Source: Thermoplasmatota archaeon (lineage in GTDB: Archaea; Thermoplasmatota; E2; JACPAO01; JAHFTW01). From it: DNA of 64,000 bases. This document shows positions 3,226-60,349 of this stretch, piece by piece (position 1 is the first letter of the stretch; each line of letters begins with the position of its first letter). The notes beneath the pieces are model-generated. The model was not told where the DNA came from and did not search any database. It saw nothing but the letters and a program-made list of their open reading frames with translations. The position numbers were made by a program, and so were the translations under genes. The stretch lies in contig DATLBS010000016.1 of the NCBI GenBank assembly GCA_035526765.1, forward strand, positions 8,681 to 72,680. Direction: 5' to 3'.

Positions 3226-5714
3226 GTGCGCTGAGGGACAAAACGTTGGGCCCCTGGTCCGCGCTGTCCAATCAAGCAGGCCTTAATCGACCCCGCCATT
3301 GCCACGCCGTGGTGACGGCCCCGGCTCCCAGGCAGGTGACCGCCACCGCGGCCGCGCGCGCCACCGTGCTGGCCTGCGCCCTCCTGACCGCGTCGCTGGC
3401 GGCGCTGGTGCTGGCGGGCTGGAGGCTGGGCTGGCCAGTCCTCACCTCGCTGGCCCCAGGGGGCCCCAGCATGATGGCCACCACGGCCTGGGCGCTCATG
3501 GCCCTCGCCGCAGGCCTCCTGGCCATCCGCAGGGGCCGCTTGCCTGCGGTGAGCCTCATGGCGGGCATCCTGGTGGCCACCTTCGGGATGGCCGTGGCCG
3601 CCGAGTACGCCCTGGGGCTGGACCTCGGCGTGGACGGCTGGGGGTGGCGCATCATGGGCAGCACGCCCCCGCCGTCGCCCCGCATCGCGCCCCTCACCGC
3701 GCTTGGCCTCATCGCCGCCGGCACCGCGACGGCGGCCATGGGGAGCGCGAAGGGACGACGCCTGGGCACGCCGCTTGCCCTGGTGGGAGGCGCCGTGGGG
3801 TTGCTGCAGCTCACCACCGACCTGTACGGCACCCGCGTCCCGGGCCGGAACACGCAGATGGCCGCGCACACCGCGCTGGCGATCCTCCTCCTTGCCATCG
3901 GGCAGCTTTCCCTGCGGCCCCACGAAGGGCGCCTGGCGGTGCTGTGGGGGCGGAGCGAGGCCTCCCGTGTCGCGCGACGGCTGCTGCCGGCGGCGCTGCT
4001 GTCGCCGCTTGCCCTGGGCCTGCCCTTCGCGCTAGCCGTCCGCTCGGGCACGCAGCAGTCCCTCTTCGCGCTCGCCCTCTTCGCGGCCTCGACGGCGGCC
4101 CTCGTGACCTCCGTCGTCTGGGTCGTCATCCTCCACCTCGAGCGCACCGGGGCCGCCCGGGATGCCCTCGTCGAGGCGGACCAGCGCAAGACCGCTCTCC
4201 TCACGGCCATCACGGAGACCACCAGCGACTCGATCTCCGTGAAGGACCTCGACAGCCGGTACGTGTACCTCAACGCCGCTGCGGGCCGGCTGCTGGGCCA
4301 TCCGGCGCAGGACCTGGTCGGGACGGACCTGTCGCAGGTCCTGGACGCGGCCACCCTGGCCCGGGTGCGGGACCAGGAGCGCGGCGTCATCGCGACCGGC
4401 CAGCCGGAGACCCGCGAGCAGGTCATCCCGGTGGACGGCGTGAAGCACCTCCTGCTGACCGAGAAGGCCCCGTACCGCGACCTGCAGGGGCGGATCGTGG
4501 GCACCATCGGGGTGTCCCGCGACATCACCGACCGCAAGAAGGCCGAGGAGGACCTGCGCCGCGCCGAGGAGCGGCTGTCCAAGGTGTTCGAGGCCACCCC
4601 GGTCGGCATCGCCCTCACGCACGCCGACGGCCGCTTCGTCGATGTCAACCCCGCCTTCCAGCAGATCACGGGGCGCACCCGCCACCAGCTCTTGTCCCCC
4701 AGCTTCACGGCGTACCAGCTGTGGGAGGACCCCGCTGACCGGGACCGCATGCTCGCGCAGGTCCGCGGCGGCGCCCTGGTGCGCGGCCACGGCGTCCGCG
4801 CCAAGCGCGCCGACGGCCAGCTGCGCGACCTCGAGGTCTCCATGGACCTTCTGGACGTGGGTGGGGAGACGCTGATCCTCACCATCGCGGCCGACGTCAC
4901 GGACCAGGCCTTGGCCGCGCGCCAGCGCGACGCCCACTCCATGGCCTTGGCGGAGCTCGACCGCCTGCAGCGCATCGAGCAGTTCCGCACCGCCTTCATC
5001 AACACCACTGCGCACGAGCTCGCCACGCCCCTCACGCCCATCCTGATCGACATGCGCCTGCTGGCCGGCCCCGAGGTGGAGTGCCTGCCTGCCCAGCAGC
5101 GGCGCGCGCTGGGCTCCCTGCTGCGCAACATCGAGCGGCTGCGGCAGACGGCGCAGGGCGTGATCGACGCCTCGCGCGTGCAGAGCGCCCAGTTGCGCCT
5201 CGACCTGCAGGACCTCGACGTCGCCACCGCCGTTCGGGACGCCGTGGCGACCCATGCCACCCCCGCGCAGCGCGCCGGCGTCCGCCTGGAGATGCAGCCC
5301 GGAGGGTCGCTGTGCGTGCGGGCGGACCCCGGGCGCCTCGCGCTCATCCTGGGCCACCTGCTGGGGAACGCGCTGAAGTTCACGCCCGCGGGGGGCCGCG
5401 TCGTGGTTGCCTGGGGGCGCCGCGATGGCTTTGCCCGGATCCGCGTGCAGGACACCGGGCCCGGGCTGGACGAGGCGCAGCAGGCGCTGCTCTGGCAACC
5501 CTATTCGCAGGTCCATGACCGCATGCAAAGCAGCGCTGTCGGCAGCGGCCTGGGGCTGTTCGTGAGCAGGAACCTCGTCGCCCTGCACGGCGGCGACGTG
5601 GGGGTCGAGAGCCCCATGCCAGGGGGCGGCAGCACCTTCTGGTTCACGCTGCCCCTGGGCAACGGGGACGCCACCGCCGGAACGGGGGGCCAGCGAGGCC
5701 TGCCCAACACCTAA
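3201..5714 (+). CDS. membrane-anchored multi-PAS sensor histidine kinase (start uncertain; a GTG near 3312 is possible)
   Basis: N-terminal TM helices, PAS repeats, a HisKA H-box (TAHELATPLTPI), and HATPase_c G-boxes (DTGPGLDE, GSGLGLFVSRNLVALHGG). No cognate response regulator lies adjacent. Confidence 0.85.
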   Translation: MRQSVPQTCALRDKTLGPWSALSNQAGLNRPRHCHAVVTAPAPRQVTATAAARATVLACALLTASLAALVLAGWRLGWPVLTSLAPGGPSMMATTAWALMALAAGLLAIRRGRLPAVSLMAGILVATFGMAVAAEYALGLDLGVDGWGWRIMGSTPPPSPRIAPLTALGLIAAGTATAAMGSAKGRRLGTPLALVGGAVGLLQLTTDLYGTRVPGRNTQMAAHTALAILLLAIGQLSLRPHEGRLAVLWGRSEASRVARRLLPAALLSPLALGLPFALAVRSGTQQSLFALALFAASTAALVTSVVWVVILHLERTGAARDALVEADQRKTALLTAITETTSDSISVKDLDSRYVYLNAAAGRLLGHPAQDLVGTDLSQVLDAATLARVRDQERGVIATGQPETREQVIPVDGVKHLLLTEKAPYRDLQGRIVGTIGVSRDITDRKKAEEDLRRAEERLSKVFEATPVGIALTHADGRFVDVNPAFQQITGRTRHQLLSPSFTAYQLWEDPADRDRMLAQVRGGALVRGHGVRAKRADGQLRDLEVSMDLLDVGGETLILTIAADVTDQALAARQRDAHSMALAELDRLQRIEQFRTAFINTTAHELATPLTPILIDMRLLAGPEVECLPAQQRRALGSLLRNIERLRQTAQGVIDASRVQSAQLRLDLQDLDVATAVRDAVATHATPAQRAGVRLEMQPGGSLCVRADPGRLALILGHLLGNALKFTPAGGRVVVAWGRRDGFARIRVQDTGPGLDEAQQALLWQPYSQVHDRMQSSAVGSGLGLFVSRNLVALHGGDVGVESPMPGGGSTFWFTLPLGNGDATAGTGGQRGLPNT

Positions 5715-5748
5715 ATGGGGGCCTCGCGTAGGGAGGTTCCCGTAGCGC

Positions 5749-7398
5749 ATGACGAAGTACATCGTCGTCACGGGCGGGGTGTTGTCGGGCCTGGGCAAAG
5801 GCATCACGACGAGCTCCATCGGGACCCTCCTCAAGGCACGCGGCGTGAGCCTGACCGCCGTCAAGATCGATCCCTACCTCAACTCGGACGCGGGCACTAT
5901 GAACCCGTTCGAGCACGGCGAGGTCTTCGTCCTCAACGACGGCGGCGAAGCGGACCTGGACCTCGGGAACTACGAGCGGTTCCTCGACATCCCCCTCACC
6001 CGCGACAACAACATCACGACCGGCAAGGTGTACAAGTCGGTCATCGACAAGGAGCGCCGAGGGGATTACCTCGGCAAGACCGTGCAGATCGTGCCCCACA
6101 TCACCAACGAGATCCGCGAATGGATCAAGCGCGTGGCCAAGAAGTCGAACGCGGACGTGTGCCTGGTCGAGGTCGGCGGCACCGTGGGCGACATCGAGTC
6201 TGCGCCCTTCCTCGAGGCCATCCGGCAACTCCACCGCGAAGTGGGCCACGAGAACCTGTTCCTCATCCACACTTCCCTGGTCCCGGTCGTCGGCGCGGTC
6301 GGGGAGCAGAAGACCAAGCCGACGCAGCACACGGTGCGCGACCTCAAGTCCATCGGTCTCCACCCCGACATGATCGTCTGCCGCAGCGCGCAGCCCCTGC
6401 ATCCCGAGATCCGCGAGAAGATCGCGAGCTTCTGCGACGTCGACGAGGCCGCCGTCATCTCCGCCCACGACGCGCGCAGCATCTACGAGGTGCCCCTCAT
6501 CCTCGAGGAGCAGGGCGTCCCCGACACCATCCTGCACCGCCTCAAGGTGAAGGCCAAGGCGCCCGACCTGGCCCCCTGGCGCGAGCTCGTGGACAAGATC
6601 GTGAACCCCAGCCACCAGGTCACGGTCGCCTTCGTGGGCAAGTACACGGACCTCAGCGACTCCTACCTCAGCATCAACGAGGCCCTGCGCCACGCCGGGG
6701 CGTCCCTTGACACGAAGGTGAAGATCGCCTACATCGAGGGCGAGGACCTCGAGTCGGACGACCGCGAGGCCTGGAAGAAGCTGAAGGAATCCGATGCCAT
6801 CCTCGTCGGTCCCGGCTTCGGCAGCCGCGGCACCGAGGGGAAGATCCGTGCCGTGCAGCACGCCCGCGAGAACGGCGTCCCCTTCCTCGGCATCTGCCTT
6901 GGCTTCCAGTTGGCCATCGTCGAGATGGCGCGCCACCTCGCCAAGCTCCCCCACGCCAATTCGACGGAGATGGACGTCAACACCGCCGACCCCGTCATCT
7001 GCATCCTGCCGGAGCAGTACGAGATCGCGGAACTGGGCGGCACGATGCGCCTGGGGTCCTACGAGTGCGTCCTTGCCATGGGCAGCCTTGCGCACGAGCT
7101 GTACGGGCGCGACCTGGTCTCCGAACGGCACCGCCACCGCTACGAGATGAACCCCGAGTACGTCGAGCGCATGGAGAAGGCGGGCGTCGTCTTCTCGGGC
7201 CGCATGCCGGACCGCCCCATCATGGAGGTCATGGAGCTGCCGCGCATCCAGCACCCGTACTTCATCGGCGGCCAGTTCCACCCCGAGTTCAACTCGCGCC
7301 CCCAGAAGCCGGGGCCGCTCTTCGTCGGCCTCATCCAGGCGGCCCTCGTCGAGAAGGGCGTCCTCAAGGCAGGCCCCGAGCCCGTCGCCGCCGCCTGA
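5749..7398 (+). CDS. pyrG: CTP synthase
   Basis: [25 protein letters not shown] at the N-terminus and a C-terminal glutamine amidotransferase domain (GICLGFQ). Full length 549 aa. Confidence 0.95.
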
Positions 7399-10099: not shown

Positions 10100-10196
10100 G
10101 TTACGTCCCCCACGAACCACAGATTGCACAGAATTCACAGAACGTCGGAATCTGTGTCATCGGTGGAATCTGTGGTTCGGTCGGGCGCGTAACGCC
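10100..10196 (-). promoter_or_regulatory. array of CACAGA(A/T)T direct and inverted repeats upstream of truD
   Basis: On the coding strand: CGAACCACAGATTCC..ACACAGATTCC..TTCTGTGAATTCTGTGCAATCTGTGGTTCG. The 13-nt arms GAACCACAGATT / AATCTGTGGTTC are inverted. Confidence 0.4.
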
Positions 10197-12431: not shown

Positions 12432-12583
12432 TGGCCTTGCGACACGGCCCTTGTTGAAAAACTACGCCGCCCGGCCTGACCCCAGATTTTCACAGAGTTC
12501 ACAGAGGCTGGCTTGGGTTCTGTGAAAGCTGACCCCGTTCTGTGAAATCTGTGAAATCTGTGGTTCGGTTGGGACGAAACCTT
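12432..12583 (-). promoter_or_regulatory. array of TTTCACAGA / TCTGTGAA repeats upstream of csl4
   Basis: On the coding strand: CCGAACCACAGATTTCACAGATTTCACAGAACGG...TTTCACAGAACC...CTCTGTGAACTCTGTGAAAATCTGG. Shares the CGAACCACAGATT head with the truD upstream region. Confidence 0.4.
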
Positions 12584-15630: not shown

Positions 15631-16523
15631 CCCCTCGACCCTCCTCCCCCAAGCGCCCCGCGAAGCCTGGCCGGACGGCTGGGGCACCGGCCAAGGCCGC
15701 CGGAGGCAAGGCCGGCAAGGCCGCCCAGGAATCCGTCAAGCGCACGGCCAAGGCGACCGCCAGGCCAGGCGGTGGCGCCAAGGCCGCGAGGGCGCCCCGC
15801 GCCCGCAAGGAGGGGCTGGACGAGGCGGTCATCGCGAAGCTGCTGCCGTACCTGCGCGCCCTTCGGGGCTACACGCGCCTCAAGGCGGACGGCCTCGAGA
15901 ACGTCCCGCGCGGTCCTGCCATCCTGGCCGCCAACCACACGGGCTGGCTGGGTCTCGACTACGCCCTGACCGCCCTCGTGCTGCATGACGAGGCAAAGCG
16001 CACGCCGCGCGGGATGGTGCACTCCGCCTGGTTCGGCAACCCCGTGACGGCCCGCTTCGCGCGCCAAGTGGGGCTCAGCAGGGTCTCCAAGGAATCCATG
16101 GCGCAGGACCTGGCGGACGGGCACCTCGTCATGGTGTTCCCCGAGGGCGAGAAGGGGGCGTTCCGCATCGCCAGCGACTACGAGGTGCTGGAGTTCGCGC
16201 GCGGCTTCGTGCGCGTCGCGATGGCGACCCAGTTGCCGGTCGTCCCGGTGGCCGTGCTGGGCGGGGAGGAGTCGAACCCCGTGGACCGCACCATCAAGGG
16301 TTACGAGGAGATGCTGAAGCTGCAGTTGCCCGTGCCTCGCAACATCCTGCCCAAGCCGGTGAAGTGGCGCATCCGGTTCCTGCCCCCCATCGCCTTCACG
16401 GATTACACGGCCGCCGACGCCGACGACGCGGACCGGGTGCACGCCATCGCGGAGGACGTGCGCACCCGCATCCAGCGCGAGCTGCGCAGGCTGCAGAAGG
16501 AACGCGGGCACCCGTACATCTGA
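15627..16523 (+). CDS. PlsC-family 1-acyl-sn-glycerol-3-phosphate acyltransferase-like protein with a Lys/Ala-rich N-terminal tail
   Basis: ATGA overlap with the upstream gene. NHTGWLGLD (NHxxxxD) and FPEGEKG (FPEG) acyltransferase motifs. N-terminus reads PAKPGRTAGAPAKAAGGKAGKAAQESVKRTAKATARPGGGAKAARAPRARK. Confidence 0.75.
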   Translation: MTPRPSSPKRPAKPGRTAGAPAKAAGGKAGKAAQESVKRTAKATARPGGGAKAARAPRARKEGLDEAVIAKLLPYLRALRGYTRLKADGLENVPRGPAILAANHTGWLGLDYALTALVLHDEAKRTPRGMVHSAWFGNPVTARFARQVGLSRVSKESMAQDLADGHLVMVFPEGEKGAFRIASDYEVLEFARGFVRVAMATQLPVVPVAVLGGEESNPVDRTIKGYEEMLKLQLPVPRNILPKPVKWRIRFLPPIAFTDYTAADADDADRVHAIAEDVRTRIQRELRRLQKERGHPYI

Positions 16524-16529
16524 CGCAGG

Positions 16530-16600
16530 CCACGAACGCTCCGCGCCCGATTCTGGACCAACGACAGTCCAACACGTCCTTGGACGACGGGGGCGTCGAC
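16530..16600 (-). repeat. intergenic repeat family, copy A
   Basis: The reverse complement reads CTGGTCGACGCCCCCGTCGTCCAAGGACGTGTTGGACTGTCGTTGGTCCAGAATCGGGCGCGGAGCGTTCG. It matches copies at about 32395, 40570 and 53655. Confidence 0.6.
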
Positions 16601-16786
16601 CAGAACCATGCCATTTGGTGTGTGGAGCGCACGGCCCCGCAAGGTGTTGACAGGTTGCGGCGGCGCGGCTTCGCCGCGCCCCCATGCCATCGCCAGCTGG
16701 AACAACGCGCCGCCGGCCACACACACCCATGGACGGGGACTCCTCGATTTTCGGGCGACCGATGGCTCGCAGGCGGCGACGGTGCC

Positions 16787-19445: not shown

Positions 19446-20008
19446 GCCCCCCCACGCTCCCCCCGGCCACCACGGTCACCGTCGGGGGCCTGCCCGGCAC
19501 CGGCACCAGCACCCTGTGCAAGCTCCTCGAGAGGGAACTGGGCCTTCCCTACCACTACGCCGGCGCCCTCTTCCGCGCCGAGGCGCAGCGCCGCGGCCTG
19601 AGCCTCGCCGAGTTCGGCGCCCTCAGCCAGCGCGACCCCTCCATCGACGAGGCCCTCGACGACCGCCAGATCGGCATGCTCCGCAAGGGGGGCGTCATCC
19701 TCGAGGGCCGGCTCAGCGGCTGGCTGGCGGCGCGCCACAAACTCCCCGCCTTCAAGGTCTGGGTCACCTGCGACGACAAGGAACGCATCCGCCGCATCGT
19801 CCGCCGCGACGGCGGCGACGAGCGCGCGCAGCAGGAGGCCACCGAGCGGCGCGAGGCCTCCGAGGCGGACCGGTACCTCCGCTACTACGGCGCCGACCTC
19901 AACGACCTCAGCCGCTACGACCTCGTCCTCGACTCCACCGCGACCGCCCCGGAGGCCCTCGCTGAGGCCGTGCGGGAGGCCCTGGCGCGCCAGGTGGCCA
20001 AGGCGTGA
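19442..20008 (+). CDS. cmk: archaeal-type cytidylate kinase
   Basis: ATGA overlap with the upstream gene. GLPGTGTSTLCKLL P-loop. About 188 aa. Confidence 0.85.
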   Translation: MSPPTLPPATTVTVGGLPGTGTSTLCKLLERELGLPYHYAGALFRAEAQRRGLSLAEFGALSQRDPSIDEALDDRQIGMLRKGGVILEGRLSGWLAARHKLPAFKVWVTCDDKERIRRIVRRDGGDERAQQEATERREASEADRYLRYYGADLNDLSRYDLVLDSTATAPEALAEAVREALARQVAKA

Positions 20009-24719: not shown

Positions 24720-24781
24720 CTTGGTGCATGTGAGCCACGGAATCTGCTGAATCCAAGTACGAATCCGGGAATCCGGCCACG

Positions 24782-30696: not shown

Positions 30697-32235
30697 TCAT
30701 GGCCCCGCCCCGAGGAATCCCTGTCGCGCCAGGTCCGCGTCGAGGGCGGCCAGGAACGGTTCGACGGAGCCCTCCTGGACGACCGCGCCCGCCGCGACGG
30801 GGTGGCCGCCGCCCTCCGCGCCCACGGCACGCGCGGCGGCAAGGCAAGCGGCGCCGAGGTCCAGCCCGGCGGCGACCTGGGCGTGGGTGCCGCGCGTGGA
30901 GACCTGCACGAGGCCATCGGGGCGCCGGGCCAGCATGCACAGGGGCAGCCGGGGCTCGACGACGTGGACCATGCCGATGCCAGCCACCATGCCTGTGTGG
31001 TCCGGGTTGGCGGTCCACGCGACCTGCACGGCGTTGCGGGCCTGCGTGCCCTCCTCGCGCAGGGCGGCAAGGCCCGCCTGCAGGGCCGCCTTGTAGGAGG
31101 TGAAGAGGGCCTGGGCCTCGGAGGCGGCGGCGGGGTCGCCCATGAGGTAGGCCAGCGCGGTGGCGGCGGCGCCTCCGCGGCCGCAGGCATCGACGGTGCG
31201 GAAGACCTGCCGGAGGCTCCTGCCCAGGCGGGCGTTGAAGTCCATGGGCGCAAGGAGCACGTCGTGCGGGGGCGGCGTGGATCCTGCAGCGAGGTGGGCC
31301 GCCACGAGGGCGGACACGAGGCGGGTGCGGCCTTCCTCGTCCAGCTCGTCGACTTCGGCGTCCGGGTCGACGCCGGCCGCAAGCAGGAAGGCGCGGGCCT
31401 GCTCGGGCGTCTGGGCGCCGGGCACGGGAGGCCCTGCGTGCCGGATGGCTTGGGCGAGGTCGAGGCCGAACAGGGGCGGCATGGGCACCACGCGGAGGTG
31501 GCCGGCCGCGCGGCAGCGGTCCAGCAGCTCGCGGTTCCAGCCCTGCCAGCCGCCCATGTGCTGCCAGTCGCCGACTGCCCCGGAGAGGGCGATGGGGCCC
31601 CAGGCCAGGGCGGGCTCGCCGCAGAGCGCAAGGGCGAGCGCGGCGGCGGAGGTGGCGGCGGAGGCATCGCGGGAGCCGTCGAGCCCTTCGGCGCGCGGGT
31701 TCAGGAGGGTGACCGTCGGGTGGGGGGCATCGGGGGGGAGGTTGTGGTGGTCGACCACTAGGACGGGGCGCTGCGGTGCGGCAAGCTCGCTGAAGAGGGC
31801 CAGGTGGCTGGTGCCCTTGTCGAGGAGGATGAGGCCGTCCCATGGCTCCCCGAAGAGGGTGCGGTAATGCGACTCGGTCTTGTCGCGGGAGGCCCGGATG
31901 GTGAAGCGGTGTCCCGTGCGGAGGAGGGCCTGGGCGGCGACGGCGGCGGCGCACAGGCCGTCGGCATCATTGTCGCAGGCGAGGAACCAGTGGGTGCCGC
32001 GGGGCATGCCGCGAATGACGGCGGCGGCGCGGGCGGCAGCGGCCTGGAACCTCGCGGTGCTCACGTCCTCCCTGAAGTCAGGGGGCGCATGAGGGCTTCG
32101 GCCCCGACGGAACGAACGCCGGGTCGGATTTTCCAGGCGAGGCCAATGGGGATGGACGCCAGGCGTCGACCATCGGTCCGTCGTAAAACCGCAACCAGTA
32201 AACACCCCTGTGGCGCCGACGCCGTCGTCCAGCAT
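30697..32235 (-). CDS. DHH/DHHA1 phosphoesterase (archaeal RecJ/Cdc45-like nuclease)
   Basis: Internal ATG (MLDDGV..). FLACDNDADGLCAA, VVDHHNLPPD (DHH), and a C-terminal DHHA1 region with GGGH. Confidence 0.7.
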   Translation of the reverse strand: MLDDGVGATGVFTGCGFTTDRWSTPGVHPHWPRLENPTRRSFRRGRSPHAPPDFREDVSTARFQAAAARAAAVIRGMPRGTHWFLACDNDADGLCAAAVAAQALLRTGHRFTIRASRDKTESHYRTLFGEPWDGLILLDKGTSHLALFSELAAPQRPVLVVDHHNLPPDAPHPTVTLLNPRAEGLDGSRDASAATSAAALALALCGEPALAWGPIALSGAVGDWQHMGGWQGWNRELLDRCRAAGHLRVVPMPPLFGLDLAQAIRHAGPPVPGAQTPEQARAFLLAAGVDPDAEVDELDEEGRTRLVSALVAAHLAAGSTPPPHDVLLAPMDFNARLGRSLRQVFRTVDACGRGGAAATALAYLMGDPAAASEAQALFTSYKAALQAGLAALREEGTQARNAVQVAWTANPDHTGMVAGIGMVHVVEPRLPLCMLARRPDGLVQVSTRGTHAQVAAGLDLGAACLAAARAVGAEGGGHPVAAGAVVQEGSVEPFLAALDADLARQGFLGAGP

Positions 32236-32394
32236 GACGAGTTGGTATCGCGAGCGATGGAATGGGGCGCGCCGAGGCGCGCCCGCCGCACCGCGGGACT
32301 CGCGGAACCACCTTTGTGGCCCATATTCCGCGCGCTCCGCGGTCTTCGCGGTAGTCGGGGTCGTGCGCTCCGCGCACCAAAGAACAACTTTTCT

Positions 32395-32500
32395 GGGGCT
32401 GGACGCCCCCACCGTCACATGGTGTTGGGCGGTCAATGATCCAGAATTGAACGCGGAGCGCCCGACAATCAAGAATCGAGCGTCGAGCGGCCGACAACCG
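32395..32500 (+). repeat. intergenic repeat family, copy B
   Basis: CTGGGGCTGGACGCCCCCACCGTCACATGGTGTTGGGCGGTCAATGATCCAGAATTGAACGCGGAGCGCCCGACAATCAAGAATCGAGCG... Confidence 0.6.
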
Positions 32501-32604
32501 GGAACCTGGACTACCTACTACCCAACAACACGCTGGCGTTAGTGGCAACGACCAACCAGAACGGGAGAAGGAAGGGAAAAGGGATGCAGGCGGACCTGCG
32601 CCGA

Positions 32605-32640
32605 CATTAGTCGACCAGCAGCCGCGCGCCGCCGCGATGG
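32605..32640 (-). repeat. perfect 29-30 bp duplicate of the rps15 3' end (last 9 codons then TAA), about 100 bp downstream of the gene
   Basis: agtcgaccagcagccgcgcgccgccgcga occurs at about 32609 and again at the true gene end at about 32711. Confidence 0.6.
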
Positions 32641-32707: not shown

Positions 32708-33139
32708 TCAGTCGACCAGCAGCCGCGCGCCGCCGCGAGTGTAGTTCCAGTCCGCAGGCAGTTCGCCGCGGGACTGGTAGTACTTGGCAAGGCCGCGGAT
32801 GCGGGACTCCATGAGCTCGAGGCCGCGCATGTTGTGCAGGTCGCGCGTGTTGGCCTGGAGGTGCTCCTGCAGGTGGATGGAGCGCTGCACGAGGTTCTGC
32901 AGGTCCTGGGGGAGCTTGCCGGAGACGCCGGCGTCCTTCATGATCTGGGCGATCTTCTTGCCCGTCAGCTCGTGGACGGACGGGATGCCGTACGAGTCGC
33001 GCAGGATGAGGCCGATCATGGCGGGCTGCTTGCCTTCCTTGGCAAGCTCGACGACCTTGGACTCCGCCTCGCGGGGGAGCATGGGCACCCAGGAGGGCGC
33101 GGCGTCGCGGACGGGCTTGGAGCTGGCGTGGCGGGACAT
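32708..33139 (-). CDS. rps15: ribosomal protein uS15 (S13e-type)
   Basis: Internal ATG MSRHASSKPV. The C-terminal domain reads LQEHLQANTRDLHNMRGLELMESRIRGLAKYY. Confidence 0.85.
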   Translation of the reverse strand: MSRHASSKPVRDAAPSWVPMLPREAESKVVELAKEGKQPAMIGLILRDSYGIPSVHELTGKKIAQIMKDAGVSGKLPQDLQNLVQRSIHLQEHLQANTRDLHNMRGLELMESRIRGLAKYYQSRGELPADWNYTRGGARLLVD

Positions 33140-36404: not shown

Positions 36405-36612
36405 GCTCTCAGGTCCCTTGGACAGGAGGGGACACATAAGCGCCACCGTTGGAAACAACTTGCCGGGAGTTGTAAGGGACTCGCGACGTCCGCCCACCCA
36501 CGGCCCCGAATGGAGAACGGAACCCGAAACCTGCAGGCAAGGGGACAGAGCTCACTCTGGTATCTGTGTCCTCGGGGGCTGGGCAGGAGTGTTGGGGAGG
36601 CGGTTGGATGGG

Positions 36613-40569: not shown

Positions 40570-40660
40570 AGCCTTGTGTGCGCGTAGGGTCGATGGCCGA
40601 GCGCTCCACGTTCGGTCCTGGATCATTTGACAGGCCAACACCCTGTGTGGTGGGGGAGGT
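40570..40660 (-). repeat. intergenic repeat family, copy C
   Basis: Reverse complement reads CGTGCTAGACCTCCCCCACCACACAGGGTGTTGGCCTGTCAAATGATCCAGGACCGAACGTGGAGCGCTCGGCCATCGACCC. Confidence 0.55.
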
Positions 40661-40925
40661 CTAGCACGAAGGTTGCCTTGTGGTGCGCGCAGCGCACTGC
40701 CACGCAACCGCCGCGACACCCCCTCGCGGGCGCGGCTGCGCGCGCCCCTATTCCATCGCTTGCTCGAACGACGCGCCGCCGCCACCCACCCGTCCACCTT
40801 GAGCTCGGGTCTTCACGGCGACCGATGGCTCGTCAGCTTGATTGCAGGCAGATCAACAAGGAGCGACTTCGTGCCGCTACGGATGCAGAAGCGAGCCAAA
40901 ATCAGCGTCCAGGTCCTTGGTGCGC

Positions 40926-41766: not shown

Positions 41767-41982
41767 ATGTTCCGGACCCTGGTGTGGCCCGCCCTCGCCT
41801 TCCTCACGGGCGTGGGGGCCCTGAAGGCGGCGATCCCTCTCGAAAGCCTGGCGCTGATGGCCGTGGGCCTTGCCCTCAGCTCCTTCGGGCTGCTGCGCCT
41901 CATGCTGCGCGACGTGGAGCCGCGCTCGCGCCCGGCCTTCACGCCGATGGCCACCGCGGTCCGCGTCGCCGACGACGACTAG
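41767..41982 (+). CDS. small 2-TM membrane protein (71 aa), hypothetical
   Basis: A strong GGGGAGGT lies 4 nt upstream of the ATG, and an AT-rich patch (ctcaaatagg) upstream. Hydrophobic helices. Confidence 0.45.
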   Translation: MFRTLVWPALAFLTGVGALKAAIPLESLALMAVGLALSSFGLLRLMLRDVEPRSRPAFTPMATAVRVADDD

Positions 41983-42106
41983 GCGACCCCAGCCGGAAGG
42001 CTAGGCGACCCCAGCCGGCAGCGCACCCTTGCAGCGGCGGCCGCAAGGCGGCAGGACGGGGCGAACGCTGGCAATCCTTTCCCCGATGGCAGGCGCGCGG
42101 CGGCGG

Positions 42107-43519
42107 CTAGACCTGGATGGGCACGGGGACGAAGGTGAGGATGAAGACGGCCAGCACGATGGCGGCCAGCACGAGGCGCTTGCGGTCCAGCTGCGTGCGG
42201 TCGTTGAGGGGCGGCGCATGCTGGATGCCCGTCATGAGCAGGAAGAAGGCCATCAGCATCCACGAGTTGAAGAGGAAGGCCAGCACCATGAGGCCCCCCA
42301 CGGCGGCCCACGCCACGTACTTCATGCGCTCTCCCAGCACGGCGCGCGCCACGTGGCCGCCGTCCAGCTGCCCGGCGGGCAGGAGGTTGATGCCGGTGAC
42401 CAGGAGCCCGACCCAGCCGGCCAGGAACGTGGGATGGGTGAGGTAGCCCTCGTTGTGGAACGCCTTGTCGAGGAGCTGCACGAGGAGGGGGTCGCCCAGC
42501 CGGAGCAGCCCGTCGTCCCACTCGAGATCCAGGTCGACGGAGCGGGTGCCCTCGGGCAGGGCGATGGTGCGGCGTTCCCCCGTGCCAGGCCGGAGGCTGC
42601 GGGTGCTGGTGTCCGTCACGGTGGTGCCGTCCGCCTTGTGGAGGGTCGCGGTGGCCGTGTATTCCCATGCCTCGGTGGCCTCGGGGGGTGCCGTGACGTT
42701 GAAGGTGACGAATCCCGCGGTGGCGTTGGCGGCCAGGTGGGCGTGCCCGGATTCCGTGGCCATCGTGAAGGGCGCGTCGGCGGAGAGGATGGGGTGGCCC
42801 ACGTCCGGCAGCGGCTGCGCGCCCGCCCCCGTGAGGAAGGCGCCCAGCAGGATGACGGGCAGGGTCACGAGGAAGCCGACGAGCGGGCCGGCGGCGCCCA
42901 CGTCGAAGAGCGCCTTGCGGTCCGGCATCGGGTCGCGCATCGAGATGAAGGCCCCCAGCGTGCCGAAGGGCACGAGGATGGGTGGGGCCGGGATGAAGAA
43001 CGGGAGGCTGGCCCGCAGCCCGTGCCGGCGGGCGACGACGTAGTGGGCCAGCTCGTGCAGCCCGAGGATGAGCATGAGGGGGAGGGCGAACGTGAGCGCC
43101 CCCCAGGCGAGGTCGCTGGCGTCCCACAGCACGGACCAGTCGAGGTCGCGGCCGCCGGACCTGTAGCCGTGCCACGTGATGGCGCCGGACACCACGGTGG
43201 TGGCAAGGGTGGCGAGGAGCAGCCCGACGTGGAGGCCGGTGCGGTGCTGCGCCGCGGGCGGCCGGCTGGCGACGAAGAGGATGTCCTCGCCGGACTCGCG
43301 GCGCACGAACACCAGCATCTCGGGGTCCGCGGCCTGGATCTCGGCGCGGGCCGCGGCGAAGCGGGCATCGAACTCCTGCGCGGGGAACATGAGGTAGAAC
43401 AGGTGGGCCGCGACGGTGCTCCGGACCTTCTCCTCGCGGGCGTCGTAGACGCGGAAGTGGCGCTGCACGATGCGGCGCAGCGCCGCCTGGTCGAGCCCGC
43501 CGGGCGCCGCCTGGTCCAC
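42107..43519 (-). CDS. site-2 protease, M50-family zinc metallopeptidase (start possibly a downstream ATG)
   Basis: HELAHY (HExxH) within a TM helix, plus an LLPAGQLDGGHV (LDG) motif. Has an inserted extracytoplasmic domain. Confidence 0.8.
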   Translation of the reverse strand: MDQAAPGGLDQAALRRIVQRHFRVYDAREEKVRSTVAAHLFYLMFPAQEFDARFAAARAEIQAADPEMLVFVRRESGEDILFVASRPPAAQHRTGLHVGLLLATLATTVVSGAITWHGYRSGGRDLDWSVLWDASDLAWGALTFALPLMLILGLHELAHYVVARRHGLRASLPFFIPAPPILVPFGTLGAFISMRDPMPDRKALFDVGAAGPLVGFLVTLPVILLGAFLTGAGAQPLPDVGHPILSADAPFTMATESGHAHLAANATAGFVTFNVTAPPEATEAWEYTATATLHKADGTTVTDTSTRSLRPGTGERRTIALPEGTRSVDLDLEWDDGLLRLGDPLLVQLLDKAFHNEGYLTHPTFLAGWVGLLVTGINLLPAGQLDGGHVARAVLGERMKYVAWAAVGGLMVLAFLFNSWMLMAFFLLMTGIQHAPPLNDRTQLDRKRLVLAAIVLAVFILTFVPVPIQV

Positions 43520-46488: not shown

Positions 46489-46559
46489 ATCGGGGGACGG
46501 GGCCTTAACGGTTCAGGTGGGGATGGGGGGACGGCAGGTCGGCGAGGCCCCGCCGCCGA

Positions 46560-46700
46560 AGCTAGCCACGGAACGCACGGAACTTCGCGGAAACTGAAAA
46601 CCACCTTCTCTGCAGGCTTCCGTGGGTTCCGTGGCCATCTTCCGTGGGCCCTTGGGTCTTCCGTGGGTGCCGTGGCCAGAAAGGGGAGTGCCTCGCGCGT
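46560..46700 (-). promoter_or_regulatory. array of CCACGGAA direct repeats with inverted TTCCGTG copies, upstream of the membrane-protein/HD operon
   Basis: On the coding strand: GGCCACGGCACCCACGGAAGACCCAAGGGCCCACGGAAGATGGCCACGGAACCCACGGAAGCC...GTTTCCGCGAAGTTCCGTGCGTTCCGTGGC. Confidence 0.4.
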
Positions 46701-53383: not shown

Positions 53384-53559
53384 ACACTCTCCTCGACGGG
53401 ACCGCAGGGTCCGCAGGCTCACCCGAGCGTGAAGCATTCCAACGGAGCATTCCTTCCCCCCACCCATCGGTCGCCGTGAAGACCCGATGGGTGCCATGGG
53501 TATGTGGGGGCGGCGGCGGGTTCCTGCATGCGATGGAAGGGGCGCGCGAAGCGCGCCCC

Positions 53560-53650
53560 GCCGAACCTGCGGAACGCACCCGACTTCACGGAAACCGAAC
53601 TCACGAAGGATTCCGCGGGCTTCCGTGGGTTCCGTGGCAAAATTGAGCGG
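53560..53650 (+). promoter_or_regulatory. array of CACGGAA/CACGAAG direct repeats and TTCCGTGG inverted repeats upstream of the secreted-protein island
   Basis: GCGGAACGCACCCGACTTCACGGAAACCGAACTCACGAAGGATTCCGCGGGCTTCCGTGGGTTCCGTGGC. Confidence 0.4.
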
Positions 53651-53654
53651 CTTG

Positions 53655-53760
53655 TCCTGGTGCTGGACGCCCCCGCCGCCACCAGGTGTTGGACTGCCAA
53701 CGATCCAGAATGGAACGCGGAGCGTCCGACCCTCAAGAACGCCGTGGAGCCCGGGAGTCC
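53655..53760 (+). repeat. intergenic repeat family, copy D
   Basis: CTGGTGCTGGACGCCCCCGCCGCCACCAGGTGTTGGACTGCCAACGATCCAGAATGGAACGCGGAGCGTCCGACCCTCAAGAACGCCGTG... Confidence 0.6.
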
Positions 53761-53893
53761 GACGCAGGACCAGAAGCAAGCCATCGACAGCCAATGAACG
53801 GTCCTCGGTGCCCTGGAGACCCTGAGGCCTTGCGATGCACGCTCCGGAACGGTTTCGCTCTCCTTATCCATCGGAGAGGAGTCGGCAGCCCCC

Positions 53894-54942: not shown

Positions 54943-56685
54943 TCAGGCCTCGGTGAAGGCGGGGCTGGTCGCCGTGGCTCCCGTCGTGGACGTGGCGCGG
55001 AACACCAGGTGGGTCCCCGCGGGCACGGACATGCTCTTGGCGTAGGTCCCCCACGAGTCCTTCGGGAGCGCGGTCCAGGCGCCGCCGTCTAGGCGGACCT
55101 CGACCTTGGCGATGGCCTGGCCGGAGGAGACCGCGGTCTCGACCCACCAGTGGTTGGTGAGGGTCTTGGGCGTGAACGTCGCCGCGAACGTCGCCGGCGA
55201 TGGGGCCGTCGAGGTGGTGGACGTCGGCGTCGGGCTCGACGTGGCCGTGCCCGTGGACACGAGCCAGGCCATGGGCGGAGACATGGCGGTGCGGCCGTCC
55301 ACGTCCTTGGCGGTGGCGAGGACCGTGGAGCCCTTGGGGGCGCTGAAACTGGCCGCCCACGTGCCCCACGACGTCTTCGCAAGCGCGTGTGGCGACCCGC
55401 CGTTGACGGTGGCGGACACGCTGGCCACGGTGGCGCTGGCCGTCACCTTGAGGTCCACCCACCACGCGTTGGAGCCCGATGCGGGCGCGAACGTGGCCGT
55501 GAAGGCCGCGGCGGGGGCCGGGGCCGGGGCGGACCCGTACGCCAGGGCGCGGTCGGCGCGCACCAGGCCGGCGCCGGAAGCGGTGTCGCGGCCGGCAGGG
55601 CCGACGTCCTGCGCGGTCGCCTCGAGGGCCTGCCGCACCTGCACGTTCGTGTAGGTGGGGTGCGCGTTCCACACGAGGGCCGCGGCGCCGGAGACGTGCG
55701 GGGCGCTAAGCGAGGTGCCGCCGCCGTAGAGGTAGGCGTTGTTGGCGCCGTGCCCCGTCGTGTAGATGTTCGAGCCGGGTGCAGCGAGGTCGACCTGCAG
55801 GCCCTTGCTGGTCGTGCTGCAAGTGGCCAAGGCCTGGTCGATGCAGCCCACGGCGATGACGTTGCTGTAAGCGGCGGGGTACAGGACGCAGTCCGCGCAT
55901 CCGCCGTTGCCGGCCGCGGCCACCAGGAGAAGGCCCTTGCCCCACGCGTAGTCGACGGCGCTCTGCACGGCGGAGCTCGGGGTGGGGCCCCCCACCGACA
56001 TGGAGACGATGCGGGCGCCGTTGTCGGCGCACCAGCGGATGCCCATCGCGATGTCGGAGTCGTAGCCCTGGCCCTGCGAATCCAGGACCTTGACCTCCTT
56101 GAGGGGGGCGTTCGCGATGCCGGCGACCCCGAGGCCGTTGTTGATCGTCGCGACCGCGACGCCGGCGGTGCGGGTGCCATGGCCGCCGTCGTCCCAGGGG
56201 TCGCTGTCGAAGTTGACGAGGTCGGTGCCGCCCACGTAGCGGGCCTTCAGGTCCTCATGCGTGTAGCGGACACCGGTGTCCAGCATGCAGACCGTGGCCG
56301 CAGGGCCGCCAAGCGAGGTGCTCCAGGCGGCGGGCGCGCCGATGGCCTGGGGCGCGTACTGCTTGCCGAAGCCGGGGTCGGTCGGCGTGAGCCCGAGGGC
56401 GTGCGAGACCCCATCCGCCTCGATGGAGCGGACGCCGCTGCGCCCGTGTACGTGTTCCTTGAACGCCTTGCCGTGCGGGGCCTGCACGACGGCGAAGCCC
56501 AGGGCCTCGTCGATGGCGAGGACATCAGCGCCCTCGTAGTCGCCGTGCGGCTGGAGGCCGGGAGGCATCCGGTCGAAGTGGACGACGAGGCGCTGGGGCG
56601 GGTCGTCGGCTGCGGGGGCGGCGGCCGCGACGCCGGTGCCCAGGAGGGCGGCGACGAGGATGCAGGTGGTCAGGAGGATCTTCAT
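54943..56685 (-). CDS. secreted subtilisin-like serine protease (S8) with two C-terminal WWVE-type beta-sandwich modules
   Basis: Signal peptide MKILLTTCILVAALLGTGVAAAAP. Catalytic triad context D (MLDTGV), H (HGTRTAG), S (GTSLSAPH). Two roughly 90-aa repeats: FTATFAPASGSNAWWVDLKV...VNGGSPHAL...WGTWAASF and FAATFTPKTLTNHWWVETAV...LDGGAWTAL..WGTYAKSM. Confidence 0.85.
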   Translation of the reverse strand: MKILLTTCILVAALLGTGVAAAAPAADDPPQRLVVHFDRMPPGLQPHGDYEGADVLAIDEALGFAVVQAPHGKAFKEHVHGRSGVRSIEADGVSHALGLTPTDPGFGKQYAPQAIGAPAAWSTSLGGPAATVCMLDTGVRYTHEDLKARYVGGTDLVNFDSDPWDDGGHGTRTAGVAVATINNGLGVAGIANAPLKEVKVLDSQGQGYDSDIAMGIRWCADNGARIVSMSVGGPTPSSAVQSAVDYAWGKGLLLVAAAGNGGCADCVLYPAAYSNVIAVGCIDQALATCSTTSKGLQVDLAAPGSNIYTTGHGANNAYLYGGGTSLSAPHVSGAAALVWNAHPTYTNVQVRQALEATAQDVGPAGRDTASGAGLVRADRALAYGSAPAPAPAAAFTATFAPASGSNAWWVDLKVTASATVASVSATVNGGSPHALAKTSWGTWAASFSAPKGSTVLATAKDVDGRTAMSPPMAWLVSTGTATSSPTPTSTTSTAPSPATFAATFTPKTLTNHWWVETAVSSGQAIAKVEVRLDGGAWTALPKDSWGTYAKSMSVPAGTHLVFRATSTTGATATSPAFTEA

Positions 56686-56739
56686 GAGGGTCACGTGGGC
56701 GGTCTTGGGCGGGCCGGAGGCGCTCCGGAGCGGGCGCGG

Positions 56740-56879
56740 GGGCGCCAAGGGGGTAGGCGAAGTCGGAGAGGAAGGGGAAGAGGGCGGAGAGGCGGAGAGG
56801 AGGGAGGATAGGCGAAAGGAGGGGGGCTGGAGGAAGAGGACGGAAGGAGATGGAGGAGGGGAGAAGATGTGCGGCGCGC
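56740..56879 (-). terminator. long pyrimidine-rich tract on the minus strand downstream of the glycoside hydrolase gene
   Basis: Plus strand reads gagaggaaggggaagagggcggagaggcggagaggagggaggataggcgaaaggaggggggctggaggaagagg. Its complement is C/T-rich. Confidence 0.35.
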
Positions 56880-58517
56880 CTACGTCCAGGTGTAGGTCGT
56901 GCTGGTGGCGGTCTGGCCCGTGCTGGCGGTGGCCACGAAGACCACCTTGCTGTTGTTGGGCGCGTTCAGGCTCTTGGCGTACGTGCCCCAGGAGTCCTTC
57001 GGCAGGTCCACGAGGGACCCGCCGTTGATGCGGACCTGGACCTTCGTGACGGCCTTGTTGGCCGTGACGCCGGTCTCGACCCACCAGTCGTTGCCCAGCG
57101 ACTTGGGCGAGAACGAGGCCGTGAAGGCCGTCGTCGTGCTGCTGGCGGAGGTGCTGGTGGCGGGGGCCGCGGTGCCCGTGCTGGTGGCGGTGGTGCCGGA
57201 GGTGCCGGTCACGGTCGCGTACGAGACCATCCAGGCCACCTTGGGCGACACGGCCGCATGGCCGGTCGTGTCCTTGGCCGTGAAGACGACCATGGACCCC
57301 TTGGGGGCGCTGAAGCTGGCCGCGTACGTGCCGTACGAGGTCTTGCCCAGGGCGTGTGCGCTGCCGCCGTTGACGGTGGCGGAGACCCCCGAGAGGGCGT
57401 GGTTGCCGGTGACCTTGGCCTCGACCCACCAGGCGTTGGCGCTGGAGGTCGGGGTGAACGACGCCGTGAAGACGGTCGCGGAGGTCGTCGTGGACGTCGT
57501 GGCGGGCGGCGAGGTCGTCGTGCTGGAGGCACGCTCGGCCTTCACGCCGGCGATCCACACCAGCGCGGCGGGCTTCTGGATGCCAGTGGTCTTGCTGGCC
57601 AGGCCCCAGTAGCGCTCCGCCATGCCGTAGTAGTTGGCGAGGTCCATCGTGGGCGAGTCGTACCAGGAGCGGTAGATCATCGCCTGCACGCCGAGGGCCT
57701 TCAGGTCCTGCATGTGGCTGAAGAACTTCGCGAGGGCGTCCTTCTGCATCGTGAGGTACGTGGGCTCCGGGTAGCTCGAGAGCGCGATGTCGGTGAGGAC
57801 GATCGGCTTGTTGAACAGCGTCTTGAGCTTCTGGACGCCGGCCAGCGTGCTGTCGTACAGGTTGCTGTAGGCGGTGCCCGTCTCGTGGGTGGAGCCACGC
57901 ATCCCCTGCAGGCCGGTGAAGTCGCTCTTGGCGGCGATGCGGTCGAAGTTGTGCCAGTTCTCGCTGCCCCAGTTGCCGAAGGCCAGGACGACCTTCGCGT
58001 TGGGGTACCGGGAGTGGATGTAGTCGGCCATGTCGGCCATGTAGCCGTCGAACGGCTCGTAGGTCGAGATGCCACCCTTGTTGAACTCCGACTCCAGGAA
58101 CACCATGACGGGCTTGCCGCCCATCTTGGAGTTCATGTGGTCCGTCATCTGCTGCGCCAGCTGCTTCCAGTGGGCGCGGTCCTTCTGTGCGTTGTGGAGG
58201 CTGCTCCAGCAGCCGTTCTCGACGCAGGAGGGGGTGATGTCGTCGCCCCAGTAGTAGAAGTGGATCGCGGGCGTGACGCCGGCGTTGTTCATGTTGGTGA
58301 GCTGGGTGTCCGCGGAGCCCCAGCCGGAGCTGAGGGTCCAGGGGCCGATCCAGAAGGTGCCGTAGTCGGCCTTGACGCCGGCCGAGGCCTGGGCCGCCAT
58401 CGAGGACGACTCCATGCCGAAGGCCATGCGCCCGGGGGTGGTTGTTGCGGACGCTGCCAGGGGCAGGGCCCCCAGCAGCAGCCCGAGGCTCATCAGTCCG
58501 ATCAGGGTGCGTTTCAT
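56880..58517 (-). CDS. secreted glycoside hydrolase (TIM-barrel, clan GH-A-like) with two C-terminal WWVE-type modules
   Basis: Signal peptide MKRTLIGLMSLGLLLGALPLAASA. VMVFLESEFN and AFGNWGSENW resemble the acid/base and nucleophile regions of GH5/GH26-type enzymes. A Thr/Ser linker leads to FTASFTPTSSANAWWVEAKV... and FTASFSPKSLGNDWWVETGV.... Confidence 0.7.
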   Translation of the reverse strand: MKRTLIGLMSLGLLLGALPLAASATTTPGRMAFGMESSSMAAQASAGVKADYGTFWIGPWTLSSGWGSADTQLTNMNNAGVTPAIHFYYWGDDITPSCVENGCWSSLHNAQKDRAHWKQLAQQMTDHMNSKMGGKPVMVFLESEFNKGGISTYEPFDGYMADMADYIHSRYPNAKVVLAFGNWGSENWHNFDRIAAKSDFTGLQGMRGSTHETGTAYSNLYDSTLAGVQKLKTLFNKPIVLTDIALSSYPEPTYLTMQKDALAKFFSHMQDLKALGVQAMIYRSWYDSPTMDLANYYGMAERYWGLASKTTGIQKPAALVWIAGVKAERASSTTTSPPATTSTTTSATVFTASFTPTSSANAWWVEAKVTGNHALSGVSATVNGGSAHALGKTSYGTYAASFSAPKGSMVVFTAKDTTGHAAVSPKVAWMVSYATVTGTSGTTATSTGTAAPATSTSASSTTTAFTASFSPKSLGNDWWVETGVTANKAVTKVQVRINGGSLVDLPKDSWGTYAKSLNAPNNSKVVFVATASTGQTATSTTYTWT

Positions 58518-58886
58518 GGTCAGGTTCCGGGGCGCGTTTCCCGATGCAGAAGCACCAAGGTTGTCCGCGCCCGACCTGCCTTCCTCCCCCCCGTCCGACT
58601 TAATCGACCATCGTAGCCCTTATTGGGGACAACGGACCCGCGGGAATTCCCATATCAGTGTTCCCCCTCGCCGCGCCTGCCTCCCTTCTTATATAGCGCC
58701 CAGGGACGGAGCGCTGGTGTCCATCCCAGCGGGTCTGCATCTCCCGGAACGCCCCCCGCAGCAAGCCCACAGACGCTGAAGCCACGCACCCTTTTCCGGT
58801 CCAGACCAGCCGGAGCCCCCGGGGTGCCGCACTGACATCTGCGGGCCCTGCCCACCCCTGAAGCCTCAAGTAGTCCGTGGACGAAG

Positions 58887-59699
58887 GTGGAGTGGTCCCC
58901 ATCCGGGGGCACGGAGCTGGTCCACATCAAAGACAAGGTCCTCATCGTCGACGACGAACCCGATGTCCTGGAGAGCACGGCCCTCCTCGTGGAGGCCCTG
59001 GGCTACCAGGCCATCCGCCTGTCGGACCCCGCCGAGATCCTCGAGACCGTCGAGCAGGAGCAGCCCGGCATCCTGCTGCAGGACCTCAAGATGCCCGGCC
59101 TCAACGTGGCCGGCCTTGTCGCCGCCCTACGGCTGAACCCCCTCACAGCGGAGGTCCCATTGGTCTTCTTCAGCGCCGGCGGCGACCTGCCAACGACCGC
59201 GGCCCGCTATGACGCGTGGGGCTACCTCGCCAAGCCCTTCGGGAAGGAGGAGCTCGCCCGCCTGCTCAACCAGGTCCTCGGGGCTCCCGCCAAGCGCACC
59301 GGACCCTGGCAGGGCCGCGACATGCAGCGCGAGGTCCGCAGCGTCTTCCACGACTACTGGAACCTGCTGGCCGCCCTCAGCAACTACATCCTCATCCTCG
59401 ACCGCGCCAAGGGCCTGAGCGCCGAGGCCCAGAAGTCGGTGCGCGGACTCGACGAGATCATCCTCAAGCTCGAGTCGAAGACCGACCGCCTCAGCGCCTA
59501 CATCATGGCCCTCGTCGGCAGCATCGAGCCCGTCCCCGTCGCCCAGACGGCGACGCAGGCCCGCGGCGGCCGCTCCGGCGGCTCCGAGGGCGGCGACACC
59601 GGCCGCGCGTCCGGCCCCGGCCGCTCCGGCGGCACGGGCGGCAGCGGCTCGGGCCGTGTGTCCGGGCCTGGCAAGGACGACAACACGCCCACGGCGTGA
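58887..59699 (+). CDS. response regulator receiver protein with an uncharacterised C-terminal region and a Gly/Ser/Arg-rich tail (non-ATG start per track)
   Basis: KVLIVDDEPDVLE...ILLQDLKMPGLNG...LVFFSAGGD...GYLAKPF. C-terminal tail RGGRSGGSEGGDTGRASGPGRSGGTGGSGSG. Confidence 0.7.
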   Translation: MEWSPSGGTELVHIKDKVLIVDDEPDVLESTALLVEALGYQAIRLSDPAEILETVEQEQPGILLQDLKMPGLNVAGLVAALRLNPLTAEVPLVFFSAGGDLPTTAARYDAWGYLAKPFGKEELARLLNQVLGAPAKRTGPWQGRDMQREVRSVFHDYWNLLAALSNYILILDRAKGLSAEAQKSVRGLDEIILKLESKTDRLSAYIMALVGSIEPVPVAQTATQARGGRSGGSEGGDTGRASGPGRSGGTGGSGSGRVSGPGKDDNTPTA

Positions 59700-59745
59700 C
59701 ACACCTCCTTCCTTCCCTCTCTCCTTCCTTCTCCCGTTCCCTTTT
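59700..59745 (+). terminator. pyrimidine-rich tract after the response regulator gene
   Basis: cacctccttccttccctctctccttccttctcccgttcccttttctgtgg. Confidence 0.4.
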
Positions 59746-60349
59746 CTGTGGCCTCAAGTCGCCAAATCCTTCTCGTCGTCACGGCCATGTTCACGGACCG
59801 GTGACCGATCTGTACTGCACCCTTCGCCTCGGTGCCATGGCTTCCGGCACGGCCATCAGGTACGCGACGTCCCGAACGACGAACCACCGTTCCAGCTAGG
59901 ACGCCCTGTTGCCACTGCGATGTGCCGGAACAAGGGCCGGCCAAGCCACCGAGTGACCCTTTGGGACGCGGCAGCACTGCGGTTGCCAAGAAGGAGACGC
60001 AGCGGCAACCCTTGATGGCCGATGCCAGGGCTGGATTCCAAGACCTGCGCAACGCGCTGGAACCCGCTGGTCCAAGTTCATAGAGGGCGATGCCAGGCAC
60101 GTCCACGGATGCTTGATGCGGACTGGGGGCTGGCAGGTGGCGAAGCGGAGCCCTGATTCCTCGCGGATGCCGCGGAACACGCGGAGATCCCCATCTCCTG
60201 GGGCGAAGGTTCCCCATCGAGAGGTCTCCGTTCTCCGCGCCCGCCGCGTGCAAGGTCGACAGGCGCGCCTGCGCCGCCCGCTGGCAATGCACAAGAGGTG
60301 ATGGCCGGGGGGGGGGGGCGGGGCCCCAGGCAACGGGTCCATCGCAGCG

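Follow-up and report, generated by a model that had tools for sequence, protein, structure and literature searches.

Four similar stretches of intergenic DNA in the genome of a Thermoplasmatota archaeon (assembly GCA_035526765.1) raise the question of whether they belong to a repeat that has spread as mobile DNA or to a module that is kept in place by a cellular function. The stretch analyzed here (the window; 64,000 nt of contig DATLBS010000016.1, positions 8,681 to 72,680) has a GC content of 70.4% and is archaeal, belonging to Thermoplasmatota. It encodes TBP, an archaeal-type S15, DUF5611, Kae1/Bud32, Cbf5, RpoL, exosome subunits, and aIF2-beta; all of its annotated genes are housekeeping genes, and the closest named homologs of its proteins are found in Thermoplasmatota MAGs.

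Copies of the repeat and their architecture

The window contains four full copies of the repeat, all of them intergenic, which a full-length profile recovers with E values of 1e-55 to 1e-59 (nhmmer). They are located at positions 16524-16767 on the minus strand (c1; 244 nt, E = 5.9e-59), 32168-32480 on the plus strand (c2; 313 nt, E = 1.5e-55), 40585-40830 on the minus strand (c3; 246 nt, E = 5.1e-56), and 53462-53745 on the plus strand (c4; 284 nt, E = 6.5e-56). A preliminary description of this DNA had reported four copies at the same places and on the same strands, and a profile built from the segment described there recovers all of them (E = 1e-30 to 1e-37), with no other match in the window below E = 0.09. 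The size of the repeat, which had been given as 90-110 bp, has to be corrected: the unit comprises 245-310 bp (244-313 nt across copies), about three times the earlier estimate, which had captured only the 3′ module of an element whose conserved 5′ module precedes it in all four copies. A possible fifth copy at 36500-36560 could not be upheld, because aligning it locally to the consensus gives a score of 16-18 at best, compared with a mean of 17.8 for random segments of the window; the region is matched neither by the nhmmer profiles nor by the covariance model.

Each copy consists of a module A, a variable linker of 0-80 nt, and a module B of about 105 nt. Module A begins with CCATCGGTC at its 5′ end and carries GCGATGGAAT (GCGATGG) at its 3′ end, followed by a strong GC hairpin (GGGGCGCG-GAA-CGCGCCCC and variants). 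In c2, where module A was found at 32170-32288 (plus strand), this hairpin is located at 32264-32284 on the same strand (GGGGCGCGCC-GAG-GCGCGCCC), and both sides of its stem change between copies (helix 5).

An extra palindrome in the linker is present only in c2 and c4, where arrays with a period of 9 nt comprise two or three CRCGGAA motifs followed by three TTCCGYG motifs. In c2 (32290-32352, plus strand), motifs of the CGCGGAA type precede those of the TTCCGCG type (inverted repeats I1 and I5); in c4 (53558-53638, plus strand), three CACGGAA motifs precede three TTCCGYG motifs (period 9 in TRF), and the palindrome overlaps the start of module B. The c4 palindrome is 74% identical (self-blast) to a free-standing palindrome at 46553-46635 on the minus strand, which contains the same CACGGAA/TTCCGTG arrays without being a copy of the element.

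Module B is an imperfect palindrome of about 105 bp that is closed by an inverted repeat of 12-15 bp (GTGCGCTCCGCG...CGCGGAGCGC). The covariance model (R1) places it at 16531-16636 in c1 (minus strand; 94.8 bits, E = 5e-22), corresponding to the segment described previously at 16530-16600, at 32359-32466 in c2 (plus strand; 117 bits), at 40596-40701 in c3 (minus strand; 91.1 bits), and at 53621-53730 in c4 (plus strand; 90.1 bits). In c2, the inverted repeats on either side of the module are 15 nt long (GTCGTGCGCTCCGCG at 32360-32374 and CGCGGAGCGCCCGAC at 32452-32466) and 93% complementary. Against shuffled sequences, significance is reached by the closing inverted repeats of c2 (p < 0.001), c3 (p = 0.04), and the copy of a related genome, L144 (p = 0.004), but not by those of c1 and c4, which have decayed. 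A degenerate second copy of the 3′ end of module B (about 25-30 nt; GGAGCGyCCGAC...AAGAA) follows in c2 (32468-32501) and c4 (around 53740-53775), which renders the true 3′ boundary of the element uncertain.

Pairwise identities among the copies are 62-67%, and the copies are about equidistant from one another. Invariant columns are not scattered but clumped (runs test, p ~0.001) into the blocks CCATCG, GCGATGG, GGGGCGCG, GTGCGCTCC, GGTGTTGG, TCCAG, and CGCGGAGCG. The similarity of the copies forms a mosaic, with c4 matching c3 in the 5′ portion of module A and c2 in the 3′ portion of module B; c1, in turn, clusters with the L144 copy. Given their low identity, the copies are old and show no sign of recent activity.

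Genomic context

The neighborhood differs from copy to copy. Copy c1 takes up nearly all of the spacer that separates the stop codons of two convergent genes, encoding a PlsC-like acyltransferase (plus strand, ending at 16523) and an alpha/beta-hydrolase (minus strand, ending at 16787), and c2 is antisense to both of its neighbors, the DHH gene (minus strand, starting near 32065) and the S15 gene (minus strand, ending at 32708). The other two copies lie between co-oriented genes: c3 between those of a HAD hydrolase (minus strand, ending at 40926) and DUF5611 (minus strand, ATG at 40504), and c4 between those of TBP (plus strand, ending at 53383) and a secreted protein of 281 amino acids (plus strand, starting at 53894). 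The orientation relative to the neighboring genes is thus inconsistent across the four copies, which rules out a consistent role in 5′- or 3′-untranslated regions. Neither a 5′-UTR element or riboswitch nor a 3′-UTR element or terminator fits, because c1 and c2 have no co-oriented gene downstream and c2 has none upstream.

Module A of c2 had been hidden because it lies within a spurious N-terminal extension of the DHH gene. The longest open reading frame of this DHH/DHHA1 (RecJ-like) gene (32065-32325, minus strand) runs 260 nt farther upstream, across module A; a start at the GTG near 32065, which is preceded by GGAGG, is more plausible than one at 32325. Neither the window nor the related loci (about 104 kb) contain a transposase, an integrase, or an autonomous partner of the element.

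Distribution among related genomes

The related loci were fetched via the neighboring proteins and comprise about 104 kb from 13 contigs of related genomes, whose shared genes have nucleotide identities of 77-90%. Twelve of the contigs (about 101 kb) contain no copy that is detected by nhmmer, where about six would be expected at the density of the window; nine of them also lack matches to the covariance model.

At the c1 site, the convergent PlsC/hydrolase spacer measures 263 nt in the window but only 48 nt in L149 and L150; the two genes even overlap in L147 and L148, and the spacer in L145 and L146 consists of 150-159 nt of unrelated sequence with other palindromes. At the c3 site, the spacer between the HAD and DUF5611 genes comprises 421 nt in the window vs. 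41-42 nt in L019 and L142, and 505 nt of unrelated sequence in L143. The extra DNA at this site (about 380 nt) exceeds the size of the element, so that the comparison with the empty site yields no exact boundary. At the c4 site, the relatives L016-L018 lose all similarity directly after the TBP stop codon. Synteny breaks in this 3′ flank of the TBP gene (from 53384 onward in the window, 10574 in L016, and 1978 in L017), and in three related lineages a wholly different sequence and a different next gene follow directly on the stop codon.

The only other copy found is that of L144 (Logan SRR16915476; PlsC, 92% at the amino acid level), the closest relative at the c1 locus, where it occupies the same PlsC/hydrolase spacer (nhmmer, E = 2e-28). 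It is on the opposite strand compared with c1, with both flanking genes collinear. The two copies agree in their indels and, at 72% identity, in the variable 5′ part of module A, which suggests orthology followed by an inversion. When only ungapped columns are considered, however, this pair is not more similar than the others, and two independent insertions into the same spacer would explain the data equally well.

Scans for a core pattern (GTGTTGG-N10-13-TCCAG-N7-CGNGGAGCG; in the case of IMG/VR, without the last two bases) gave 5 matches in GTDB representative genomes, 10 in JGI metagenomes, and 2 in IMG/VR, none of which has extended similarity to the repeat by nhmmer. The collections of plasmids and phages contain no blastn match. 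A pattern derived from module A proved too loose for IMG/VR, where it gave at least 120 chance matches and no real one.

Origin of the repeat

The element is intergenic and noncoding, occurs in both orientations, is modular and mosaic, rich in palindromes, and restricted to one lineage, and the orthologous spacers of relatives are short or empty. For these reasons, we interpret it as a lineage-specific, non-autonomous, and probably mobile mosaic palindromic repeat of the MITE/BIME/BOX kind, an interpretation to which we give about an even chance. The repeat would have spread through the intergenic DNA of its Thermoplasmatota host lineage as non-autonomous mobile DNA, copied by a transposase or recombinase that acts in trans on the conserved blocks. 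This putative enzyme may recognize CCATCGG, GCGATGG together with the GC hairpin, and the inverted repeat GCGCTCCGCG/CGCGGAGCGC, and its need for these blocks would have preserved them while the rest of the sequence drifted to near saturation. Hairpins in read-through transcripts, the pushing apart of genes that were once adjacent, and any other effects on neighboring genes would be incidental.

A MITE-like element had been one of three candidates in the preliminary description, next to a family of small noncoding RNAs and a protein-binding (terminator- or insulator-like) site, and among these the evidence leans toward it. Like MITEs, the element is small (under ~500 bp), noncoding, and intergenic, is present in multiple copies and in either orientation, and forms stable hairpins; its presence differs between related genomes, with filled sites in the window and short or empty orthologous sites in relatives at c1 and c3 (boundaries inexact), and module B is bounded by inverted repeats of 12-15 bp. 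Unlike in MITEs, outer terminal inverted repeats are not significant for the whole unit of 245-310 bp (p = 0.05-0.5 for its ends vs. shuffled sequences), nor is a target-site duplication, a cognate insertion sequence is absent from the window and the related loci, and the copies (62-67% identity) are far more diverged than those of typical recently active MITE families. The check for target-site duplications that had been proposed yields candidates in the form of 7-nt direct repeats flanking c1 (GCCTGCG), c2 (GCGTCGA), and c3 (GCCATCG), each with p ~0.08-0.12, but none at c4 and L144; the combined p value is ~0.13 and thus not significant.

The clumped conservation could result from the requirements of an enzyme, but it could also result from selection in place on a cellular function, as both fit the pattern. 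The possibility of selection in place keeps alive the alternatives of a small RNA, a protein-binding cassette, and an invertible switch. More generally, one lineage may have acquired a functional, orientation-independent module, either a new structured RNA of about 250-300 nt or a dyad-symmetric binding or insulator cassette, whose blocks are under purifying selection at each locus; we regard this possibility as rather doubtful. The cassette would then have been flipped in place at the PlsC/hydrolase spacer, and selection would have acted across a species split.

Alternative explanations

A structured small RNA or cis-acting RNA of about 250-300 nt, encoded on the strand that the preliminary description had taken as sense, is a rather unlikely alternative to a mobile repeat. 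The conserved blocks would form the helices CCAUCG:CGAUGG, the GC hairpin, and GCUCCGC:GCGGAGC. They are indeed mutually complementary, with CCATCG pairing with CGATGG and module B being closed by GCGCTCCGCG/CGCGGAGCGC, and 88% of the cells are paired compared with 84.6% in shuffled sequences, which together with the clumped conservation and compensatory changes at the apex of the GC hairpin would be in agreement with an RNA. The covariation analysis that had been suggested was carried out on five sequences and detects two-sided changes at six pairs, mostly in the GC hairpin and the linker, in a structure that is derived from the same five sequences.

The folding energies do not single out a strand. 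The z-scores of single copies are as low as -2.9 and -3.1 in the sense direction, but the antisense strand folds equally well (z-scores of -2.7 and -2.3), and the energies of the consensus folds are -38.99 (sense) and -38.42 (antisense) kcal/mol. In the closing stem of module B, five G-U cells on the sense strand stand against one A-C cell, an excess that is not significant (~p = 0.1). Short YTTAAR/TATAA boxes are seen upstream of genes in the window, whereas visual inspection revealed no box of this type within the element or up to 45 nt before it, and no run of five or more T that would form an oligo-T terminator. Conserved C/D-box or H/ACA signatures are lacking, and these two classes of RNA were rejected because their defining boxes are absent from the sequence. 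In a search against Rfam 15, only one tRNA in the window reached the gathering score, and only chance-level matches at E <= 10 were obtained around c2 and c4. That the element is missing from orthologous spacers and from the ~101 kb of related genomes, and that it is inverted at the sole locus that is shared, likewise argues against an RNA. The earlier proposal of a family of small noncoding RNAs therefore remains a candidate that has found no specific support, with no Rfam match, no promoter box, similar folds on both strands, and no counterpart in relatives.

The lack of a strand preference would fit a cassette that acts at the level of DNA, independently of its orientation, and is bound by a transcription factor or by a nucleoid-associated or insulator-like protein at dyad-symmetric half-sites (TCCGCG/CGCGGA, which are found also in the linker palindromes). 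Such a cassette would tolerate the inversion at the c1/L144 locus and would agree with the strict conservation of short blocks amid saturated sequence and with the inverted TTCCGYG/CRCGGAA arrays in c2, c4, the free-standing palindrome at 46553-46635, and spacers of the relatives. However, the genes next to the copies have no common function or regulon, the same spacers with the same genes lack the element in relatives, a length of 250-300 bp is large for a binding site, and no candidate binding protein was identified. On balance, we consider a binding cassette improbable.

The opposite orientations of the repeat in the collinear PlsC/hydrolase spacers of the window and L144 would also be expected of an inverton, in which a recombinase acting on flanking inverted repeats flips the segment and thereby changes transcription across the spacer. 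The L144 copy is flanked by 15-nt inverted repeats (87% complementary), and the indels and the 5′ part of module A (72%) that it has in common with c1 suggest orthology rather than independent insertion. Yet the inverted repeats that flank c2, c3, and c4 do not reach significance, there is neither a visible promoter inside the element nor a recombinase gene nearby, the orientations are compared between species and not within a population, and two independent insertions fit the data equally well. An invertible switch is very unlikely.

An origin of the copies as diverged fragments of a protein-coding gene family or as small open reading frames is effectively refuted, because c3 has stop codons in six of six frames, variable columns are distributed over the three codon positions without a period of three (45/52/42), and the lengths of 33 of the 41 gap runs are not multiples of three, which bears out the earlier statement that indels break any reading frame; the long open frames that cross some copies are found everywhere in DNA of 70% GC, and a stop codon in the copy of L144 interrupts the frame of the weakly similar peptide RSAFxSGSL, which the reverse strand of three copies could encode.

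Comparison with known repeat families

Mosaic palindromic repeats are known from bacteria, where they include the BOX elements of pneumococci. Like these and like REP/BIME elements (PMC2817692), the repeat consists of conserved modules with a variable middle part that can hold extra palindromes; it is GC-rich, forms hairpins, is located between genes, and does not need a target-site duplication. Unlike them, it has no REP unit of 20-40 nt headed by GTAG and no RAYT-type transposase in view, its host is an archaeon, and there is no sequence similarity. REP sequences are defined as imperfect palindromes of 20-40 nt with a conserved head that alternate in orientation and exceed 100 copies per genome, whereas the present element is made up of two different modules and contains no repeated short unit of the REP kind.

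Palindrome-associated transposable elements (PATEs) derived from IS200/IS605 occur in archaea and cyanobacteria. They lack terminal inverted repeats and target-site duplications, neither of which is significant for the whole unit here, and they resemble the element in carrying GC hairpins near the ends. In contrast to PATEs, the two hairpins of the element differ in sequence, no gene for TnpA or TnpB is in view, and its 5′ end is not preceded by a conserved tetra- or pentanucleotide (the 5′ flanks are GAG, CGA, GAG, CAC, and GAC). An assignment to the IS200/IS605 PATEs was therefore rejected, as the flanking target motif is absent.

Two further classes were considered and rejected. Integron attC sites are imperfect palindromes with a core site at each end (R″ and R′; RYYYAAC ... 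GTTRRRY) and follow gene cassettes in one orientation; GTTGGAC/GTTGGGC fits R′ in three copies, but there is neither a matching R″ nor a cassette array, and the orientations are mixed. The template and variable repeats of DGRs do not apply because adenine-specific changes are absent.

The family is new, but the kind of object to which it belongs, small dispersed palindromic repeats, is already known; on the present evidence, we regard it as a modest find, ordinary in kind though from an unusual host. Catalogs of small dispersed repeats are poor for archaea and almost nonexistent for uncultured Thermoplasmatota. The profile and the covariance model provide a marker for genome rearrangements, assembly breaks, and strain typing in this lineage, and the family could serve as a starting point in the search for the enzyme that mobilizes it. 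Should selection in place on the conserved blocks be demonstrated, the repeat would represent a new archaeal regulatory RNA or DNA element.

Other palindromes and repeats

The intergenic DNA of the lineage is full of palindromes in which two or three tandem 9-nt motifs are followed by the same motif in inverted orientation. They are located at 10100-10193, 12489-12580, 19452-19480, 24740-24776, and 46553-46635 of the window and at 10847-10996 in L145, 1817-1975 in L146, and 2516-3020 in L143. The motifs vary by locus and include CACAGAAT, CACGGAA, GGGATTYCG, and TTCAGTGGG. Two arrays of CACAGAAT (10100-10193 and 12489-12580) form 45-nt inverted repeats (87% complementary) around 2.4 kb that contain the genes for RpoL and an exosome subunit.

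The terminal codons of the S15 gene are present twice, in a perfect direct repeat of 29 nt (32609-32637 and 32710-32738). Both copies adjoin a stop codon of their own, TGA at the real end of the gene and TAA at the orphan copy 100 nt downstream, an arrangement that resembles a scar left by integration or duplication at the 3′ end of the gene. The intervening 72 nt include GCGATGGA and a hairpin, reminiscent of module A.

In L019, a segment of 1.6 kb (5600-7240) between the genes for an M50 peptidase and the HAD protein carries two uncharacterized open reading frames (429 and 70 amino acids); at the corresponding position, the window comprises only about 195 nt (41914-42109). A tRNA-Leu(CAG) of 98 nt that ARAGORN predicted at 16256-16353 (minus strand) is probably a false positive, because it is antisense in the conserved coding region of the PlsC-like protein and is not called as a tRNA by Rfam.

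The region from 54943 to 63998 harbors a cluster of large paralogous open reading frames with internal repeats (55021-55520 vs. 56958-57487 and 61218-61631 vs. 63036-63434), whose low-complexity stretches of the Thr/Pro type suggest that they encode secreted or surface proteins.
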